Below, one piece after another: positions 41,519 through 54,680 of a stretch of 64,000 nt of DNA. This DNA comes from Candidatus Aminicenantes bacterium (GTDB taxonomy: Bacteria; Acidobacteriota; Aminicenantia; Aminicenantales; Saccharicenantaceae). A program made the translations under genes and the position numbers. Where the stretch lies: assembly GCA_963725825.1 (NCBI GenBank), contig CAVSAI010000023.1, positions 5,296 through 69,295 on the forward strand, read 5' to 3'. Under the pieces are notes generated by a model. It made no database searches. It was not told where the DNA came from and was given only the letters and a program-made list of their open reading frames with translations. Within the stretch, counting starts at the first letter, position 1. Every line of letters starts with the position of its first letter.

Positions 41519-41578
41519 GGGACAGTCCCCTCCGGGGACAGTCCCTTTTCAGAACTCGTACCCAAGGGACATGTCCCC
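41519..41578. repeat. Cluster of three GGGAC..GTCCC palindromes immediately 3' of dnaE2
   Basis: GGGACAGTCCCC at 41519-41530, GGGGACAGTCCC at 41534-41545 and GGGACATGTCCCC at 41566-41578. The first two together can fold into a 27-nt hairpin. Confidence 0.7.
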
Positions 41579-41579
41579 A

Positions 41580-44500
41580 TCAGAACGACCTCAGGAAAGT
41601 ACACTTGGTGATCTTGGGGACTCCCTCCCCGTCAACCCGGACCTCGCCGCGCAGGAAACAGACGGGCGGCATCCCGTAGGTCGTGCAGTGCGTCTCGCCG
41701 ACACCCTCGAGGAGGCCCGTTTCGTCCTCGAAGATGTAAAAATACTTTGCGCCGCCGTTCCCATTCCCGTTCCCGCCGTATCCCCCGGGGCCCCCGTCCG
41801 CCTTCTCCGGCTCCTCGTCGTCACCGCCGCCGGCCCCTCCGCCATACCCGCCATACCCGCCGCGGCCCTTGCCTTCCTGCACGGTGTTATAGGTCACCCT
41901 CTGACGGGCGTCGACGACCCGGACGACGAGCTCGACCATGGTCCCGGCGCAATCCTTGAGGTCCTTCACCCGCAGCTCCGGCCGCTTCCCCTCGTAGAGA
42001 TCGAGGTCGTCCCCGTCCGGAAGGAACCCGAGGGCCTCGAAGATCATGCGTCGCTTCTCGTCCGAGGCGATGTCGGCCACCTCCTCCATGTTCTCGAGGC
42101 CCTGGAAGTAGCGCAGCACCTGGCGCGTCCGCCGCGGCTCGAGGGAGTCGAAGACGCCGGCCTTGATGAGGGTCAGGAGCTCGGCCTTGCCGGGCTTCGT
42201 CCGGGCCAGGAAGTCCTCGACCGACAGATACTCGCCGCCCGCCGCCCGCTCGTCGAGGAGGCGCTCGATCGTCTTCAGGCCGAGGCCCTTGATCGAGGTC
42301 AGGCCGACGCGGATCGCCCCGCCCCCCGCCGCCGCCTCGACCTCGAAGCCGGACCCGCTGCGGTTGGCGTCCGGCCCCAGGATGCGGATGCCGTTCCTCT
42401 TCGCTTCGGCGACGTACTCCGGCAGATCGTAGTAGCCGCCGCCGGCGTTGAGCACGGCCGCGAAATACGTCACCGGTTGGTGGACCTTGAGATAGACGGC
42501 CTGGTAGGCCATGTGGGCGTAGGAGGCGCTGTGGGCCTTGTTGAAGGAGTAGGAGGAGAACTTCTCCATGGTCTTCCACAGCCGCTCGACCTCCGGCGCC
42601 CCGTAGCCGCGCTCGCCGGCCTCGCGGGCGAACTTGGCCCGGAGCGCCGCATCGCCGCCCCGCCCCTGCTTCAGGCTCCGCCGCAGGAGGTCCCCCTCCT
42701 CCGGGGGCATGCCGGCCACGCGCTCGGCGACCTGCATGACCTGCTCCTCGTAGAGAAGGATGCCGCCGGTCTCGGGCAGGATGCGGGCGAGAAAGGCGTC
42801 GTCGCTTGGGGACATGTACCTCTGGTACGTGTCCCCGTTTTTCGCCGGCCCTCGCCGGCCGCTGCGCCGCCGCAGGAGCGCCTCCTTCATGCCGCTCTCG
42901 GTCGGCCCGGGCCGGACCAGGGCCAGGGCCTGGGTGATCTCGTGGATGTCCACGGGCTTCATCCGCCGCAGGAGGTTCATCATGGCCGGGCTCTCGACCT
43001 GGAAGCAGCCGACCGTCCGGGCGGCCCGCAGCGCCGCGTACGTCGCCGCGTCCCCGGGCGGCAGGGCCCGCAGCTGGAGCTTCTCTTTCGTCTCCGAGAT
43101 GGCCGCCAGGCCCCGCACCGAGAGGAGGTCGAGCTTGATCAGCCGCAGGTCCTCGACCGCGTCCTTGTCGAAGTGGGTCATGCGCAGGCCCTTGGCCGAG
43201 GTCTCGAGGGGCAGATACCGCTCGACCGGCCCCGGGGTCAGGATGACGCCGCCGACGTGGAGGGAGATCTCGTGATAGACGTCCTGGAGCTCGGCGGCGA
43301 GCTTCCAGACGTCGAGGCGGCCCGGCGCCGGGGCGGCCAGTCGGAGGCTCGACGGCTCGGCGAAATACGGCACGCGCTTCGACAGGCTCCGCGCCTCCTC
43401 GGGCGGGGCGCCGAACGCGCGGAGCGTTTCGTAGAGGGCCGAGCGGCCGCCGAAGCTCTTGAGGCTGCAGACGTAGGCCGCGCCGGTCTTGCCCGCGCCG
43501 TAGCGCTCGAGGACGTACTTCAGGACCTCGTCGCGGCGCCGGGAGTCGAAATCGATGTCGATGTCGGGCGGGTCGGGCCGGCCGCGGTTGAGGAAGCGCT
43601 CGAAATAGAGATCGAACTCCATCGGGCTGACGTGGGAGATGCCGAGGAGCCAGGCCAGGAAGGACGAGGCCCCCGATCCCCGCAGGTTGTGGAGGATGCC
43701 GCGGCCGCGGGCGAACTCGACGATGTCGTGGACGGCGAGGAAGTAGGGGCCGAAGCCCGACTGCTCGACCGCCGTGAGCTCGCGGCGGGCCCGCTGGCGC
43801 TCCTTCCAGGTCAGGTTCTTCGCCGCCGTGAGCCGCTCCATGACGACCTCGCGGAGGGTCCGGGGGAAGAGGTCGGCCGGGAGGCCGGGGATGACGTTCT
43901 CGAAGACGAACTCGCACTTTTCGGCGACCTCGGCCGTCCGGGCCAGGGCGTCCCGGGCCGCGTCGCCGAAGCGGCGCAGGGCCAGCGCCTCCTGGTCAGG
44001 CCCGAAGAGTCTCATCTTGCCCAGGAGCCGGTCGCGCTCCGGCGGGTAGGGGATCTTTTGCTCGATGGCATGGAGGAGGACGAGGCGCTCCGGGCTCGTC
44101 AGGTACTTGAGGGGGTTGGCCCAGACGACGGGCAAGGCGACTGGGGGACATGTTCCAATTTCGAAGAAATTGGTACGTGTCCCCCATTCCGTCTTCCAAT
44201 GATCCGCCTGAAGTTCCCGAAATCCGCCCCGAGGTAGAGGTCGCCCGGCGCGACTTTCCCCCGGAGCTCGGCCAGCATCGCGGCTTCGCTCGCCCAGCCG
44301 TGTCCCCTTTCTTGTCCCCTTTCGCGCCCCCGGCCATGCCCTCGTCCTCTCCTTTCGGGGACAGTCCCCCGGGGATGTAGATCGCGATGAGCCCGGAGGC
44401 GTCGCGGATGTCCCTGCGGTTGAAGATCTCCATGAGGTTCGAGTAGCCCTCCCGCGTCTTGACCAGGAAGACGAACCGCCGGCCCCCGCACTCGAGCTCG

Positions 44501-44690
44501 CAGCCGAAGATGGGCTTGAACCCGCCCGCCGGCGCGATGCGCTTCCACTTGCCCCAGCCGTAGATGTTGCCGATGTCCGCCAGGGCCGCGGCCGGAAGCC
44601 TTTTCCCCCGGTCCAGCCGGCCGCCTCTTCGAGCGTGACGCTCCCTCTCCCCCGGCTGTACACCGAATGGATGCGCAGCGGCACGAACAT
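41580..44690 (-). CDS. dnaE2: Error-prone DNA polymerase III alpha (DnaE2/ImuC-like). The 5' 600 nt are frame-disrupted at three points
   Basis: From about 44127 downward the ORF is a clean DnaE core (GYFLAVHDIV-type region, PDIDIDF, FQVESP, LVRPGP, FNKAHSASYA). The first 24 aa (MFVPLRIHSVYSRGRGSVTLEEAA) are PHP-like. Homology then continues in the frames of ORFs 43996..46125 and 44099..44548 before returning. Confidence 0.75.
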   Translation of the reverse strand: MFVPLRIHSVYSRGRGSVTLEEAAGWTGGKGFRPRPWRTSATSTAGASGSASRRRAGSSPSSAASSSAGAGGSSSWSRRGRATRTSWRSSTAGTSATPPGSSRSTSPGDCPRKERTRAWPGARKGTRKGTRLGERSRDAGRAPGESRAGRPLPRGGFRELQADHWKTEWGTRTNFFEIGTCPPVALPVVWANPLKYLTSPERLVLLHAIEQKIPYPPERDRLLGKMRLFGPDQEALALRRFGDAARDALARTAEVAEKCEFVFENVIPGLPADLFPRTLREVVMERLTAAKNLTWKERQRARRELTAVEQSGFGPYFLAVHDIVEFARGRGILHNLRGSGASSFLAWLLGISHVSPMEFDLYFERFLNRGRPDPPDIDIDFDSRRRDEVLKYVLERYGAGKTGAAYVCSLKSFGGRSALYETLRAFGAPPEEARSLSKRVPYFAEPSSLRLAAPAPGRLDVWKLAAELQDVYHEISLHVGGVILTPGPVERYLPLETSAKGLRMTHFDKDAVEDLRLIKLDLLSVRGLAAISETKEKLQLRALPPGDAATYAALRAARTVGCFQVESPAMMNLLRRMKPVDIHEITQALALVRPGPTESGMKEALLRRRSGRRGPAKNGDTYQRYMSPSDDAFLARILPETGGILLYEEQVMQVAERVAGMPPEEGDLLRRSLKQGRGGDAALRAKFAREAGERGYGAPEVERLWKTMEKFSSYSFNKAHSASYAHMAYQAVYLKVHQPVTYFAAVLNAGGGYYDLPEYVAEAKRNGIRILGPDANRSGSGFEVEAAAGGGAIRVGLTSIKGLGLKTIERLLDERAAGGEYLSVEDFLARTKPGKAELLTLIKAGVFDSLEPRRTRQVLRYFQGLENMEEVADIASDEKRRMIFEALGFLPDGDDLDLYEGKRPELRVKDLKDCAGTMVELVVRVVDARQRVTYNTVQEGKGRGGYGGYGGGAGGGDDEEPEKADGGPGGYGGNGNGNGGAKYFYIFEDETGLLEGVGETHCTTYGMPPVCFLRGEVRVDGEGVPKITKCTFLRSF
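44143..44185. repeat. 43-nt near-perfect palindrome inside dnaE2 (insert E2)
   Basis: Minus strand reads GGGGGACACGTACCAATTT-cttcg-AAATTGGAACATGTCCCCC, with 17 of 19 stem pairs. It coincides with the third frame change. Confidence 0.8.
44300..44370. repeat. GGGGAC-motif insert inside dnaE2 (insert E1)
   Basis: Minus strand reads GGGGGACTGTCCCC...GAAAGGGGACAAGAAAGGGGACAC. It coincides with the second frame change, and this stretch has no counterpart in the DnaE2/ImuC layout I recall. Confidence 0.7.
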
Positions 44691-44708: not shown

Positions 44709-45947
44709 TCATTTCGTCAGGGACGCCGTCTTGAGGACGTAGCCCCGCCGCGGCTCGAAGGCGTAGACGGCGTCGAGCATCTTTTCCCGGATCGTCAGGA
44801 CCGAGCCGAAGCCGTACTTGCCGCGGACCTGGTCGATGGCCCCGCCGAGCCGCTCCGGCCGGTCCGAGTAGGGCTCGAAGAGCGCCAGGGGCCGGACGCG
44901 GACGAGGTCCGAGGCCTTGACCCCGACCAGGCGCAGGGCCAGCCGCGAGCCGGCGGTGAGCTCGAGGAAGAGCTCCTCGGCGATCTTGTAGATCTTGCTC
45001 ATCTCCTGGAGCGGCGAGAGCACGAGACGGCGCTTGATCTCGGTCTTGAAGTCGGCGTAGCGGGCCTTGACCTCGATGACGTGGGCGTAGAGCCGGTCCT
45101 CGCGCAGGGCCAGGGTCAGCCGGTCGCAGAGGTAGGCCAGGTGGGCCAGGAGCAGGCGCTTGTCCCAGAGGTCCTCGAGGAAGGTCGTCTCGCGCGAGAC
45201 GGACTTGGGCAGCGTCCGCGTGACCAGCGGCCGGCAGTCGATGCCGCGCGACTGGAGATAGATGTCGTCGCCGCCCTCGCCGAAGAGCGTGTGCAGGGTC
45301 CCCCGCGGCAGATCCCACAGCTCGCCGATCTTGTGGATGTTCATCAGCCGCAGGACGACCTGGGCCTTGGGGCCGATGCCGGGCAGGGCCTCGATGCCGA
45401 GGTCGCGGAGATAGGTCTGCTCCTCGCCCTCGCGGATCTCGAAGAAGCCGGCCGGCTTGGCCCGGCGCGTGGCCAGCTTGGCCAGGATCTTGTTCGGCGC
45501 GGCCCCGACCGAGACCGTGACCCCGATCTCGCGCTCGACCTGCCGCTTGAGCTCGCGGGCCGCCTCCGTGAACGAGGGATAGATGTGGCCGCAGCGGGTG
45601 AGATCCAGGTAGGCCTCGTCGAGCGAGGCCTCCTCGACGTCCGGGGTCGCGGTGTGGAGGACGCGGAAGAAGCGCTCGGAGAAGGCCTGGTAGACCTGGA
45701 AGTTGCCGCGGACGAAGACGCCCTGGGGGCAGAGCTTGTAGCACTCGCGGAGCGGCATGCCCGAGTGGACGCCGAACTTGCGGGCCTCGTAGGAGCAGGT
45801 CGAGGCCACGCCGCGCTCGTGGGGGAGGCCGCCGACGATGACCGGCTTGCCCGCGAGCGAGGGGTCGAGCAGGACCTCGACGGCGGCGAAGAAGGCGTCG
45901 ATGTCGACGTGGACGATGTACCGACGCCCTTTTTTCGACAAAGACAC
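44709..45947 (-). CDS. dinB: Y-family DNA polymerase IV (catalytic-type DinB, in the imuB position of the cassette)
   Basis: VHVDIDAFFAAVE and SLDEAYLDLT catalytic acidic motifs are retained. GTG start with an AAGGAGG SD. It lies 18 nt upstream of the dnaE2 ATG. Confidence 0.85.
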   Translation of the reverse strand: MSLSKKGRRYIVHVDIDAFFAAVEVLLDPSLAGKPVIVGGLPHERGVASTCSYEARKFGVHSGMPLRECYKLCPQGVFVRGNFQVYQAFSERFFRVLHTATPDVEEASLDEAYLDLTRCGHIYPSFTEAARELKRQVEREIGVTVSVGAAPNKILAKLATRRAKPAGFFEIREGEEQTYLRDLGIEALPGIGPKAQVVLRLMNIHKIGELWDLPRGTLHTLFGEGGDDIYLQSRGIDCRPLVTRTLPKSVSRETTFLEDLWDKRLLLAHLAYLCDRLTLALREDRLYAHVIEVKARYADFKTEIKRRLVLSPLQEMSKIYKIAEELFLELTAGSRLALRLVGVKASDLVRVRPLALFEPYSDRPERLGGAIDQVRGKYGFGSVLTIREKMLDAVYAFEPRRGYVLKTASLTK

Positions 45948-46027: not shown

Positions 46028-46645
46028 TCAGTACTTGCGCATGATGCCGATGACCCGCCCCAGGATCTTGGCCGACGGGGCCTCGATCGGCTGGAAGGCC
46101 GGGTTCTCCGGGACGAGAAAGACATGACCGTTGTCGCGGCGCAGGCGCTTGAGCGTGACCGAGCCGTCGTCGAGCATGGCCACGACCATCTCGCCCGAGT
46201 TGGCCAGGTTGGTCCGCTCGAGCAGGACGTGGTCGCCGTCGTCGATGTAGGCGTCGATCATGCTCTTGCCGTCGACCCGGATGCAGAAGACGTTGCCCCG
46301 GCGGCGGCCGACCATCCAGCCCGGGACGTCCATGGCCTCGCCGGTCGCGTCGAACGACTCGCGCGGCCCGCCGGCCGGGACGAGGCCGGCCACCGGCACC
46401 CGGACCTGGCTCTCGACGAGGGCCGCGAGGCCGGCCACCCGGATCTCGCCGTCGGCGCGGCTGATGTAGCCCTTGCGCTCCAGGCTCTGGAGGTGCTTGA
46501 GGACGGCCGAGGGGCTGGGGATCTTGAGGGCCGAGCCCAGCTGGCGGATGGTCGGGGCGTAGCCGTGCTCGAGGACATAATCCTCGACGGCCTTGAGGAC
46601 CTTGGCCTGCCGGAGGGTCAGTTCCCGTCTCAATGTGTTTACCAT
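46028..46645 (-). CDS. lexA: LexA repressor
   Basis: Winged HTH (PTIRQLGSALKIPSPSAVLKHLQSLERKGYI), cleavage-site region VAG, and S24 peptidase Ser/Lys motifs (VDGKSM ... TLKRL). ATG at 46645 with an AAGGTG SD is preferred over GTG at 46654. Confidence 0.9.
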   Translation of the reverse strand: MVNTLRRELTLRQAKVLKAVEDYVLEHGYAPTIRQLGSALKIPSPSAVLKHLQSLERKGYISRADGEIRVAGLAALVESQVRVPVAGLVPAGGPRESFDATGEAMDVPGWMVGRRRGNVFCIRVDGKSMIDAYIDDGDHVLLERTNLANSGEMVVAMLDDGSVTLKRLRRDNGHVFLVPENPAFQPIEAPSAKILGRVIGIMRKY

Positions 46646-46661
46646 TTTGTTCACCTTTTAT

Positions 46662-52450: not shown

Positions 52451-53308
52451 CTATCGCGCAAGCATCCTGGCGATAAATCCCGCAACGTCAGTCGGCGGGC
52501 GCTTGAGCAACATGGTCAGGACATGCGGATTGCCAGTGAGCCCGTGCTGTTCATAGTAGCGGAACATCGTCGCCAGCGTTTGCACGCCGTGATCCGGCAT
52601 GCCGTGGTTGCGCATCCGCTGCGCCCATTTGTCGATATCGAGGTTCTCAGCAGTAACCGGGCGACCCAACGTCTGGCTGAGAGTACCGGCGATCTCTGCG
52701 GCAATGAGCACTGCCGGGCCGCTCAATTCATAGGTGGCAAAAAGGTGGCCGTCTTCCGTGAGCACGCGCACGGCCACTTCCGCCACGTCATCCAGATCCA
52801 CCAGCGACATACCGGCATGCAGTCCAAAGAAGCTGGCGAAAATCCCCTGTTCGACGATCCGCGACCATATCTCCCGCAGGTTCTGCATGAAGGCGGCCGG
52901 CTGGAGGATCGTGAAGGGGAGATTCGATTGGATCAGCGCCATTTCCACACGAAGCTTCTGCGCATGATGGGGCATGGCCTCGATCTGCGGATGTAGCACC
53001 GAGTGGTAGACAAAGCGGGCCACGTGTGCTTCACTGGCCAGCGCGATCATCCGCTGCCCGATAGCCGCTTCATCTGGCTGCACGGGCGGGCAGATATGAT
53101 AAACGGCGTCGATGCCCTGCAAAGCCTCTCTGAGCGATTGGTCATCACGCAGGTCACCGACCACCACATCCGTGGCGCCAAGTTCCTGCAATGGCGCCAC
53201 CTGTTCCTGCCGATGAACCAGAGCCCGCGTCGCTACGCCTGCCTGTGCGAGGGCACGCACGACGGCTTGTCCGGTCTTCCCGCTCGCACCCGTAACAAGG
53301 ATCAACAT
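52451..53308 (-). CDS. NmrA-like / atypical SDR NAD(P)-binding protein
   Basis: MLILVTGASGKTGQAVVRAL Rossmann start. 285 aa. GC is visibly lower than in the flanks. Confidence 0.8.
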   Translation of the reverse strand: MLILVTGASGKTGQAVVRALAQAGVATRALVHRQEQVAPLQELGATDVVVGDLRDDQSLREALQGIDAVYHICPPVQPDEAAIGQRMIALASEAHVARFVYHSVLHPQIEAMPHHAQKLRVEMALIQSNLPFTILQPAAFMQNLREIWSRIVEQGIFASFFGLHAGMSLVDLDDVAEVAVRVLTEDGHLFATYELSGPAVLIAAEIAGTLSQTLGRPVTAENLDIDKWAQRMRNHGMPDHGVQTLATMFRYYEQHGLTGNPHVLTMLLKRPPTDVAGFIARMLAR

Positions 53309-53693: not shown

Positions 53694-53720
53694 GGGGACA
53701 CGTACCAGGTACATGTCCCC
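53694..53720. repeat. 27-nt palindrome GGGGACACGTACC-A-GGTACATGTCCCC
   Basis: It has the same ATGGGGACACGTACC left arm as dnaE2 insert E2. It sits between the R3 remnant and a terminator module. Confidence 0.75.
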
Positions 53721-53814: not shown

Positions 53815-53993
53815 TCAGTACCGGCCGCCGCCGCCGCCTCTGCCGCCGCCGCCGCCCGTGCGGGGCCGGTCGGTGCGGGGCCGGGCTTCATTGACCGTCA
53901 GGGGACGGCCCTTGAGGTCCTTGCCGTTAAGGCCCGAGATGGCCTTGTCGGCCTCTTCCTTGTTCGGCATCTCGACGAAGCCGAAACCGCCCG
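53815..53993 (-). pseudogene. 3' half of an RRM-type RNA-binding protein gene (N-terminal RNP2 half missing)
   Basis: GFGFVEMPNKEEADKAISGLNGKDLKGRPLTVNEARPRTDRPRTGGGGGRGGGGGRY* parallels residues 43 onward of the intact gene at 63564. Confidence 0.65.
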
Positions 53994-54521
53994 GCCCCAG
54001 CCGCCGAAGAGACATGTCACATAGACGGCGTCGTTGGCCCCGGCGTCGAATTCGGCTTCGACCCGCGTCCAGTCCTGAGTGCCCGTGACCGGCGGCGTCC
54101 GCCAGTCCCCTTCTCCGTCGATATTGATCTGGGCGCCCCGGCTCTTCCCGGGAACCAGGTTCTCGGTCTTGATCCATCCGCTCAGCCTGTAGCGCGAATA
54201 GGGCCGGATGGGGACGGTGGCGACCCACGAGGCGTCGGCGCCCTTCTCGGAGGAGATCATGACGCTCCGGCTCCCCGCATGTCCGGCTGGCTCGACGGCG
54301 AAGACAGCGTCGCTTCCACGCTGCCAGTTGCGGGAAGTCCATCCCTTGGGCTTCTCGCCGGCCATCTCTTCGAAGGAGCCGTTGGCGACGAATTGCGTGA
54401 CGCCGGCCAGCTCCTCATCGGTGCGGGGCGCCTTTGTCTTGCACGTTACGAGCGAAAACAGCATCCCGCAAGCGGCCAGGACCGTAAGGGCTTGTGCGAT
54501 AGGATAACGGGGGGTGTTCAT
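53898..54521 (-). CDS. CBM/galactose-binding-like lipoprotein with its 3' end replaced by out-of-frame RRM gene sequence (chimera)
   Basis: ATG at 54521 follows GGAAGGAGGA. Lipobox-like LAACGM. The GSFEE...GWTSRNW...YRLSGWIKTENL fold ends abruptly at CLFGGWG, then 31 Arg/Ser/Thr-rich codons follow. Confidence 0.5.
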   Translation of the reverse strand: MNTPRYPIAQALTVLAACGMLFSLVTCKTKAPRTDEELAGVTQFVANGSFEEMAGEKPKGWTSRNWQRGSDAVFAVEPAGHAGSRSVMISSEKGADASWVATVPIRPYSRYRLSGWIKTENLVPGKSRGAQINIDGEGDWRTPPVTGTQDWTRVEAEFDAGANDAVYVTCLFGGWGRAVSASSRCRTRKRPTRPSRALTARTSRAVP

Positions 54522-54680
54522 CATTCCTCCTTCCGGTCCGGACGGCCCTCGGCTGGGGGTGGAACCTGGCGTTATGGATCCCCGACAGGCCGCGGACGGC
54601 AAGGGAGAATGTATCTTGGCTTCCGCCGCGTGTCAACGCCGCGCTTGACAGGGGACCCGAGTCCGGGTAACCCTTATCTC

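Follow-up and report, generated by a model that had tools for sequence, protein, structure and literature searches.

The DNA analysed here, called the window throughout and taken at its full length of 64 kb, carries on its minus strand the gene of a dnaE2-type polymerase (C-family, Pol III alpha-like), the first part of which changes reading frame three times. At the second of these changes (44300-44372) stand repeated copies of the hexamer GGGGAC, which a first-pass annotation had taken for an insert of about 62 nt that breaks the gene. This stretch is neither a discrete 62-nt insert nor a new mobile insert. To judge from its sequence, its 73 nt are a decayed remnant of a repetitive extragenic palindromic (REP)-type repeat within a hypervariable loop of dnaE2, and the explanation that we regard as probable joins such a loop, read in frame, with the loss of one base from the adjoining consensus sequence.

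The dnaE2 gene and its three frame breaks

The polymerase gene, which is open as one open reading frame (ORF), was recognised from the Pfam domains of its product (DNA_pol3_alpha, finger and HHH_6) and from its orthologues, and it belongs to an operon with the order lexA, Y-family polymerase, dnaE2, in which imuA is absent. The genome scan returned 49 orthologous loci (designated below by numbers preceded by L), nearly all of which carry the label Candidatus Aminicenantes; identity is highest for L001 (96%), L041 (95%), L002 (93%) and L027 (92%). The genes of the operon and the breaks are as follows.

41580..44690, minus strand: dnaE2-type polymerase gene, a single ORF of 1036 codons
44594..44609, minus strand: break 1, a single C missing between 44604 and 44603 (GGGGGA[C]AAAGG), from the anchor distance and the alignment
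44296..44303, minus strand: break 2, one base missing, GGGGACAC-GGCTGG as compared with GGGGATACCGGCTGG in L002 (GDT-GWASE), a frame shift of -1
44130..44149, minus strand: break 3, a net loss of one base directly 3' of the palindrome at site 3 (GTCCCCCAG followed by TCGCCTTGCCC), from the alignment and the anchor distance
44712..45947, minus strand: Y-family polymerase gene, dinB-like, upstream of dnaE2 and in a single frame
46031..46654, minus strand: lexA, the first gene of the operon, in a single frame

Read correctly, the dnaE2 ORF goes through three frame switches in its first ~180 codons, each of -1, after which the starting frame is regained; in most dnaE2 orthologues the N-terminus is in a single frame. 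The three losses of 1 nt fall within 500 nt, and each is located at or beside a run of G or C. At break 1 the anchors of the window are separated by 130 nt, as against exactly 131 nt in about 40 cleanly aligning orthologues; the base missing at break 2 is missing also relative to L001 and L027. Not one of the three losses recurs in any of the relatives compared (L001, L041, L002, L027 and L170), and no protein sharing its out-of-frame translation was retrieved from a large protein database, protein P0048 representing a different broken allele.

On the minus strand, the sequence from 44382 to 44287 is ATCTACATCCCCGGGGGACTGTCCCCGAAAGGAGAGGACGAGGGCATGGCCGGGGGCGCGAAAGGGGACAAGAAAGGGGACACGGCTGGGCGAGCG. 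The GGGGAC repeats that had been reported between two conserved DnaE2 segments are indeed present, and the two segments lie in different frames (..GLIAIYIPGG versus GWASEAAMLAEL.., in a relation of -1). On this strand GGGGAC occurs three times (44369-44364, 44319-44314 and 44307-44302) and GTCCCC once (44362-44357), the 62 nt being the start-to-start distance from the first to the last GGGGAC; GAAAGGGGACA is present twice, as a 12-nt tandem duplication (44324-44301), and an AAGGAG (44354-44349) is accompanied by an ATG contained in GGCATGGCC (44340-44332). The four GGGGAC/GTCCCC hexamers seen in 73 nt compare with about 0.09 expected from the 79 occurrences in 64 kb, and thus the clustering of GGGGAC at 44300-44372 goes beyond chance. 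In the whole window, nine GGGGAC-N(0-45)-GTCCCC pairs were counted versus 1.2 in shuffles, and GGGGACAYGT was found seven times versus 0.2 expected.

Palindromic repeats in the loops of dnaE2

The GGGGAC motifs proved to be genuine repeat-element sequence and belong to a family of dispersed palindromes having the ends GGGGAC...GTCCCC in common. This family includes a 29-nt form of REP-A (GGGGACAYGTACC-N3-GGTACRTGTCCCC), a 41-nt form in which the former is prolonged by the extension AATTTC...GAAATT, REP-B, with a consensus of about 32 nt (GAGGGACWGTCCCS-GAAG-SGGGACWGTCCCTC), and, as the smallest form, cores of 13-14 nt. With at least five copies in the window, in forms of 29, 32 and 41 nt, it has the character of the short dispersed palindromes known as REPs. 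The stretches of the window that consist of, or contain, such material are listed below.

44300..44372, minus strand: variable loop of site 2, coding for LSPKGEDEGMAGGAKGDKKGDT in the upstream frame; decayed repeat material
44352..44370, minus strand: 5' arm and loop of REP-B, GGGGGACTGTCCCCGAAAG, the 3' arm being lost
44301..44324, minus strand: 12-nt tandem duplication GAAAGGGGACAA / GAAAGGGGACAC (KGDK-KGDT), holding two GGGGAC half-sites
44144..44184, no strand assigned: REP-A palindrome of 41 nt, GGGGACAYGTWCCAATTTC-N3-GAAATTGGWACRTGTCCCC, which forms the loop of site 3 and codes for GHVPISSKLEHVP
42808..42836, no strand assigned: REP-A palindrome of 29 nt, in frame in the loop of site 4, where it codes for NGDTYQRYMSPS; fold z = -6.0
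41519..41578, no strand assigned: cluster of copies of REP-B and of decayed REP-A directly 3' of the dnaE2 stop codon; fold z = -3.7
53694..53720, no strand assigned: REP-A family copy of 27 nt, GGGGACACGTACCAGGTACATGTCCCC, apparently intergenic and non-coding by codon-usage segmentation

In the window the site-2 loop is made up of one REP-B arm together with the loop that belongs to it, of filler sequence and of the 12-nt duplication. The intact copies listed with a z value fold much better than shuffles; for the palindrome at 44144-44184, the RNA of the mRNA strand reaches -28.3 kcal/mol (z = -6.5) and that of the opposite strand -32.3 kcal/mol. The 80 nt of the site-2 loop fold no better than shuffles (z = +0.75). 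No Rfam match was obtained anywhere in the window, and a CRISPR-like array was rejected on account of the irregular spacing and mixed orientations of the copies.

The comparison of the orthologous loci revealed that the loops at three sites of the gene vary widely in length: from 24 to 213 nt at site 2 (anchors GLIAIYIP / MLAELRGK), from 21 to 126 nt at site 3 (GADFGNF / PVVWANPLK) and from 12 to 78 nt at site 4 (EALLRRR / FLARILPE). Each of these lengths is divisible by 3; the exceptions are L001, L034, L041, L042, L170 and the window, whose anchor distances of 92 nt at site 2 and 77 nt at site 3 are both 2 modulo 3; the five off-frame loci other than the window all bear record names of the “contig_N” style. 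At site 2 the distance is 0 modulo 3 in 33 orthologous loci, which encode an in-frame loop there, an outcome that the first-pass annotation had itself named among those that would refute its insert. The part of the earlier description concerning additional sequence at this place holds, the window having 92 nt between anchors versus 24-36 nt in the near-empty alleles of L005, L006, L009, L011, L013, L026 and L027.

The closest in-frame orthologue, L002, possesses a homologous site-2 loop whose 5' end (GGGGGACYGTCCCCGAA) and 3' end (GACAAGARAGGGGAYAC) are the same as those of the window, and reads through it as ...GDKRGDT-GWASEAAMLA. Relative to the window, this loop holds an extra internal copy of REP-B, and the counterpart of the 12-nt duplication is GACAAGAGAGGGGATACC. 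Full REP-B copies occupy the position of the window's half-element, right after IYVPEG, in L014, L030, L033, L043 and L045. As to the AAGGAG..ATG pair pointed out in the first-pass annotation, it does exist, but it is not conserved in L002 and the frame of its ATG enters out-of-frame sequence; it was accordingly rejected as an internal start and, from the sequence, looks fortuitous.

Palindromes are recognisable at sites 2-4 in more than 25 loci, in both orientations and in all three reading frames, which implies that the insertions were independent of each other. At all three sites (at least 33 loci, with empty alleles also existing) the element stands in frame without breaking the conserved ORF, and the 49 dnaE2 loci together carry 61 palindrome copies; as in the window, elements are found just past the dnaE2 stop codon in orthologues too. 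The peptides recurring in the loops, namely GHVPISSKLEHVP, GTCxxFEExGTCP, GDTYQxYMSPS, QFLRNWDVSPS, EGLSPKRDCPS and EGQSRFGDSPS, derive from a few palindromes read in different frames and orientations. The mini-palindromes number 16 in dnaE2 loci versus 0 for control palindromes, and no such enrichment was found on metagenome contigs (6 versus up to 5 for control palindromes); their presence is accounted for better by the analysis of REP-B dimers than by the decay of REP-A in situ.

For the in-frame orthologue P0005, AlphaFold predicts residues 110-155, which form the site-2 loop, with a local confidence score (pLDDT) of ~29 and without secondary structure; the loop is located between the strand 101-106 and the helix 159-169 of the PHP domain. 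This model, whose overall quality is moderate (mean pLDDT 62), is consistent with site 2 being a permissive surface position.

A separate observation concerns the surroundings of the copy at 53694-53720, which has an NmrA-like ORF (52451-53308, minus strand) on one side and a truncated RNA recognition motif (RRM) gene on the other. At 53815-54602 (minus strand) an ORF resembling a carbohydrate-binding module (…AVYVTCLFGGWG) joins, in another frame, the C-terminal half of an RRM RNA-binding protein (GFGFVEMPNKEEADKAISGLNGKDLKGRPLTVNEARPR…, ending in a Gly/Arg tail). No N-terminal half of the RRM is present at the junction near 53985-54000, which looks like a deletion, a rearrangement or a chimeric join and not like a simple frameshift.

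Dispersal of the family and comparison with known systems

The family is dispersed not only in the window and over the dnaE2 loci but also on metagenome contigs. A pattern scan of metagenomes gave at least 120 contigs carrying it, with a GC content of 43-72%; these and the other counts from the scan hold among the matches listed. No dnaE2 gene was found on the 120 contigs listed, and copies reside in unrelated proteins, for which reason the possibility that the palindromes are specific to dnaE2 (as regulatory sites or LexA boxes) was rejected. An asymmetry of the stem (T..G / C..A), corresponding to a G-U pair on one strand and to a C-A mismatch on the other, is kept in 105 of 112 copies of the 29-nt form, and copies in the T..G orientation are followed on their 3' side by a T-rich tail. 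No terminal GTAG or CGTC tag was detected, as no tetranucleotide outside GGGG/CCCC is conserved in 103 oriented copies. About 20% of 150 metagenomic copies fall inside long ORFs and about 80% outside convincing ones.

Pfam domains are present on both sides of in-frame copies in MutL, GH38 and Wzy_C cases. The MutL orthologues of L053 and L141 bear one in-frame copy in the interdomain linker, and the cluster of the L053 MutL includes an Aminicenantes member. The GH38 alpha-mannosidase orthologues of L101 (minus strand) and L112 (plus strand) have in-frame copies at the same three positions, and in the O-antigen ligase-like protein of L128 three tandem copies follow the Wzy_C domain (GDTYLRYMSPKQ twice and then RGHVPEVHVP).

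The family is also found next to transposase genes. L134 (1-1576) encodes a REP-associated tyrosine transposase (RAYT), identified by NF047646 (83.7 bits, cut-off 80) and PF01797, and this gene is flanked on both sides by copies in opposite orientations (324-358, 1056-1091 and 1175-1209), that is, in the arrangement of a REPtron. In L061 (1-660) a RAYT-like gene, whose product is 43% identical to the RAYT of L134, is followed by two copies; two other proteins of L061 have identical counterparts in Candidatus Aminicenantes bacterium RBG_13_62_12. Palindromes of the type GGGGACAYGT...ACRTGTCCCC thus stand beside RAYT genes both on the Caulobacter-like L134 and on the Aminicenantes L061. The palindrome core, in nearly identical form, would thus seem to be present in different phyla, something unusual among REP families.

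The family agrees with REP/RAYT systems (REPtrons, REPINs) in the Y1 HUH transposase gene (NF047646 / PF01797) with inverted flanking copies seen in L134, and apparently also in intergenic copies often placed at gene ends, with a T-rich tail. It differs from them in that the GTAG tag is lacking and that near-identical cores extend over contigs of 43-72% GC among the matches listed; moreover, the usual families are species-specific, whereas the range of this one is broader and includes a Caulobacter-like RAYT.

The location of REPs inside genes has been described by Di Nocera, De Gregorio and Rocco (2013, BMC Genomics 14:522; PMC3733652), who reported many such repeats in genes for replication and repair and explicitly included DnaE2 among the REP-tagged proteins. 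According to the same paper, REPs are mostly intergenic, a fraction being in frame, often as dimers or groups coding for 20-30 or more residues; their stems show G-T pairing, and some families flank RAYT genes. The repeats of the window resemble these intragenic REPs in being in-frame stem-loops in repair genes, in the G-T pairing and in the adjacency to RAYTs. They differ in that those families are tagged by GTAG or CGTC, whereas the window family has no tag and unconserved flanks, its stems measure 13-19 bp and its termini are GGGG/CCCC. Neither its consensus nor a host from the Aminicenantes or Acidobacteriota appears in PMC3733652, and those titles and abstracts that match both palindromic repeats and Aminicenantes concern other topics. 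The phenomenon is already known; the family is new, and so is the phylum.

In-frame palindromes are also represented by the Rickettsia palindromic elements (RPEs), of which the RPE-1 elements are about 100-150 bp long. In the summary of Ogata et al. (2000) given in PMC3733652, RPEs share with the present family the insertion in frame at permissive surface positions of genes that stay functional, and the translation of the inserted palindrome. They differ in occurring in AT-rich, obligately intracellular hosts and in not being known to have a linked transposase, whereas the window family is of 13-41 nt, GC-rich and found beside RAYT genes.

As for the operon, it resembles the DnaE2/ImuC cassette of SOS mutagenesis (imuA-imuB-dnaE2) in that lexA and a Y-family gene are followed by the gene of a second C-family polymerase, about 1040 residues long. 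Unlike that cassette, it has no imuA, and its Y-family protein is intact in its catalytic motifs, whereas ImuB is inactive. This protein retains the catalytic DxD, as seen in HVDIDAFFAAVE, as well as SLDEAYLDLT, and its 302 bits exceed the cut-off of 256 set for NF002677, the model of DNA polymerase IV; it can therefore be considered dinB-like and not an inactive ImuB. On the N-truncated query of the C-family polymerase, the models NF004225 (436) and NF004226 (447) both remain under their cut-offs, the error-prone polymerase and DnaE models scoring equally on this partial sequence. The C-terminal domain of DnaE2 contains, in addition, a low-complexity insert rich in Gly, Tyr and Asn (GKGRGGYGGYGGGAGGGDDEEPEKADGGPGGYGGNGNGNGG; 41700-41860, minus strand), which is unrelated to the palindromes and is present, with variable length, in all the orthologues examined (107-145 residues from LYEGKRPELRVKDL to the stop).

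Origin of the frame breaks

We think it likely that the second break consists of a hypervariable loop derived from REP remnants and read in frame, adjoined by the loss of a single base from the consensus. According to this explanation, three surface loops of the polymerase and the 3' flank of its gene would have been colonised repeatedly by short palindromic repeats of the REP type, probably spread by RAYTs. Since the palindromes are free of stops in the readings seen and the loops would be permissive, the copies may have stayed in frame, giving rise on translation to short peptides (GLSPKRDCPS, GDTYQxYMSPS, GHVPISSKLEHVP, GTCxxFEExGTCP). Later on, internal deletions and small duplications might have caused their decay, which would explain the hypervariable length of the loops. 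The missing bases would be errors and not mutations: if the base were restored in a consensus presumably built from long reads, the gene would read ...IYIPGGLSPKGEDEGMAGGAKGDKKGDTGWASEAAML... For the base of break 2, we lean towards an error of consensus or assembly, with a recent genuine mutation in second place.

The distribution of frame switches among the assemblies points in the same direction. Switches were counted by ungapped mapping in each frame, as gapped tblastn chaining had bridged the window's own breaks. Over lexA, the Y-family gene and dnaE2 they amount to 29 in L049, 16 in L048, 11 in L046, 7 in L041, 4 in L170, 3 each in L042 and L034, and 2 in L001. The loci rich in switches are all named “contig_N”, a style from which alone the long-read origin of these assemblies is deduced, and about 30 assemblies of the k127, k141 and NODE types are essentially devoid of switches. 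Among assemblies that are only lightly affected, the three repeat loops account for about half of the switches; these loops are the parts of dnaE2 that together make up about 8% of the gene.

A number of observations weigh against this explanation. A single frame is kept in lexA, in the Y-family gene, in the downstream peptidase gene and in the remaining 850 codons of dnaE2, and no other unexplained switch occurs in 64 kb except the junction near 53985 (as checked by a codon-usage Viterbi segmentation together with a stop-codon check, a GC3 frame plot being too coarse). The region of the breaks holds only 9 of the 182 homopolymer runs of at least 5 nt in the window; the idea that homopolymer error, acting uniformly, suffices to explain the cluster was therefore rejected. 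In a window otherwise clean, and with so few homopolymers, three losses in 0.5 kb need a local cause, the candidates being trouble of the consensus at palindromic, hypervariable loops rich in G/C runs, perhaps combined with a mixture of strains, or alternatively genuine mutations by slippage. Furthermore, break 1 lies outside any repeat-bearing loop, and exact look-ups of three proteins of the window, aimed at its source assembly and sequencing technology, gave no match. The stretch at break 2 is only a half-element without a hairpin, so that its derivation from a REP rests on its position and on its homology to L002 and other orthologues. With regard to the spreading of the elements, the window contains no transposase, the RAYT of L134, which alone is both full-length and flanked on either side, has its closest named relatives in Caulobacter, and the RAYT-like protein of L061 is N-terminally truncated and, at 48 bits, below the cut-off of 80.

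A second possibility is that the three losses are real, slippage at G/C runs in and near the repeat-bearing loops having recently inactivated dnaE2 in this strain or scrambled its first ~150 residues; the gene would then be a young pseudogene, or else a switch by which the error-prone polymerase is turned on and off. We consider this doubtful, although it deserves serious attention: the rest of the 64-kb window is essentially free of frameshifts, the three indels in 0.5 kb are not random relative to the distribution of homopolymers, each of them removes a base at or beside a G/C run, in two cases at GGGGAC-type motifs, and the three shifts of -1 sum to -3, thereby placing the catalytic body of 850 codons in frame with the start codon. 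The return to frame loses weight, however, when it is considered that three events of +/-1 restore it by chance in about one case out of 4. Besides, no loss is common to any relative, comparable breaks follow the type of assembly over about 50 loci, and for phase variation at high frequency 4-5 bases make a short run. The out-of-frame segments still show 79-92% protein identity to the orthologues in the proper frames, and thus any inactivation must have been very recent. A bolder version, to which we attribute a low probability, holds that the breaks are real and that the indel-prone, REP-derived loops serve as mutational switches of an SOS mutagenesis polymerase. If this were true, REPs in dnaE2 and mutL would be hypermutable tracts toggling error-prone repair genes within Aminicenantes populations, and the fact that indels gather at the repeat loops in many assemblies would reflect heterogeneity of populations and not sequencing error.

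The first-pass annotation had instead envisaged a discrete element of about 62 nt between GGGGAC direct repeats, whose precise excision would restore IYIPGG-HGWASEAAM. The arithmetic is right, in that deleting the 62-nt span restores the frame and gives this junction, and empty or near-empty alleles do exist in other lineages (the seven near-empty loci at site 2). However, the junction IYIPGG-HGWASE is absent among 50 related loci, the homologous loops are read in frame by orthologues, and L002 shares both ends of the loop, from which the window differs by one base at the 3' edge; what appeared as direct repeats are half-sites of the dispersed palindrome family, and the 80 nt do not fold better than shuffled sequence. 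A discrete insert bounded by direct repeats is thus unsupported, and we deem it very improbable. That the full-length protein is produced through programmed -1 ribosomal frameshifting at each of the breaks, or through slippage in transcription, is hardly credible. Break 1 does fall on a heptamer of the canonical type X_XXY_YYZ, namely G_GGA_AAA, whose phase is correct and where a slip of -1 gives the orthologue-like ...GWTGGKRLPAAALAD, and a strong hairpin stands just upstream of break 3. Nevertheless, that heptamer owes its existence to a private deletion, about 40 orthologues being uninterrupted there, and is probably coincidental; break 2 has no slippery heptamer in phase, the features in question are conserved in no orthologue, the orthologues reading in a single frame, and the yield of three consecutive programmed shifts would be negligible.

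Returning to the in-frame loop with an adjoining consensus loss, its consequences are in the first place practical. The broken dnaE2 should not be labelled a pseudogene or an interrupted gene without support from reads, and the ORF of 1036 residues delivered by a gene caller would include about 150 out-of-frame residues. Public Aminicenantes assemblies of the “contig_N” type (L170, which is ERZ25039461 contig_56309, as well as L041, L046, L048 and L049) have multiple breaks in the three operon genes, and gene calls deposited from such assemblies, for example P0008, P0018 and P0023, are truncated or end out of frame. The loops are apparent indel hot spots in assemblies of this type, which recommends caution in the curation of metagenome-assembled genomes obtained from long reads.

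As regards the biology of the repeats, the uncultured phylum Aminicenantes, and with it an untagged GGGGAC...GTCCCC family having RAYT-like genes nearby, join the short list of cases in which repeats settle in frame within proteins. The published and unexplained bias of such repeats towards replication and repair genes recurs here, in dnaE2 and in mutL.

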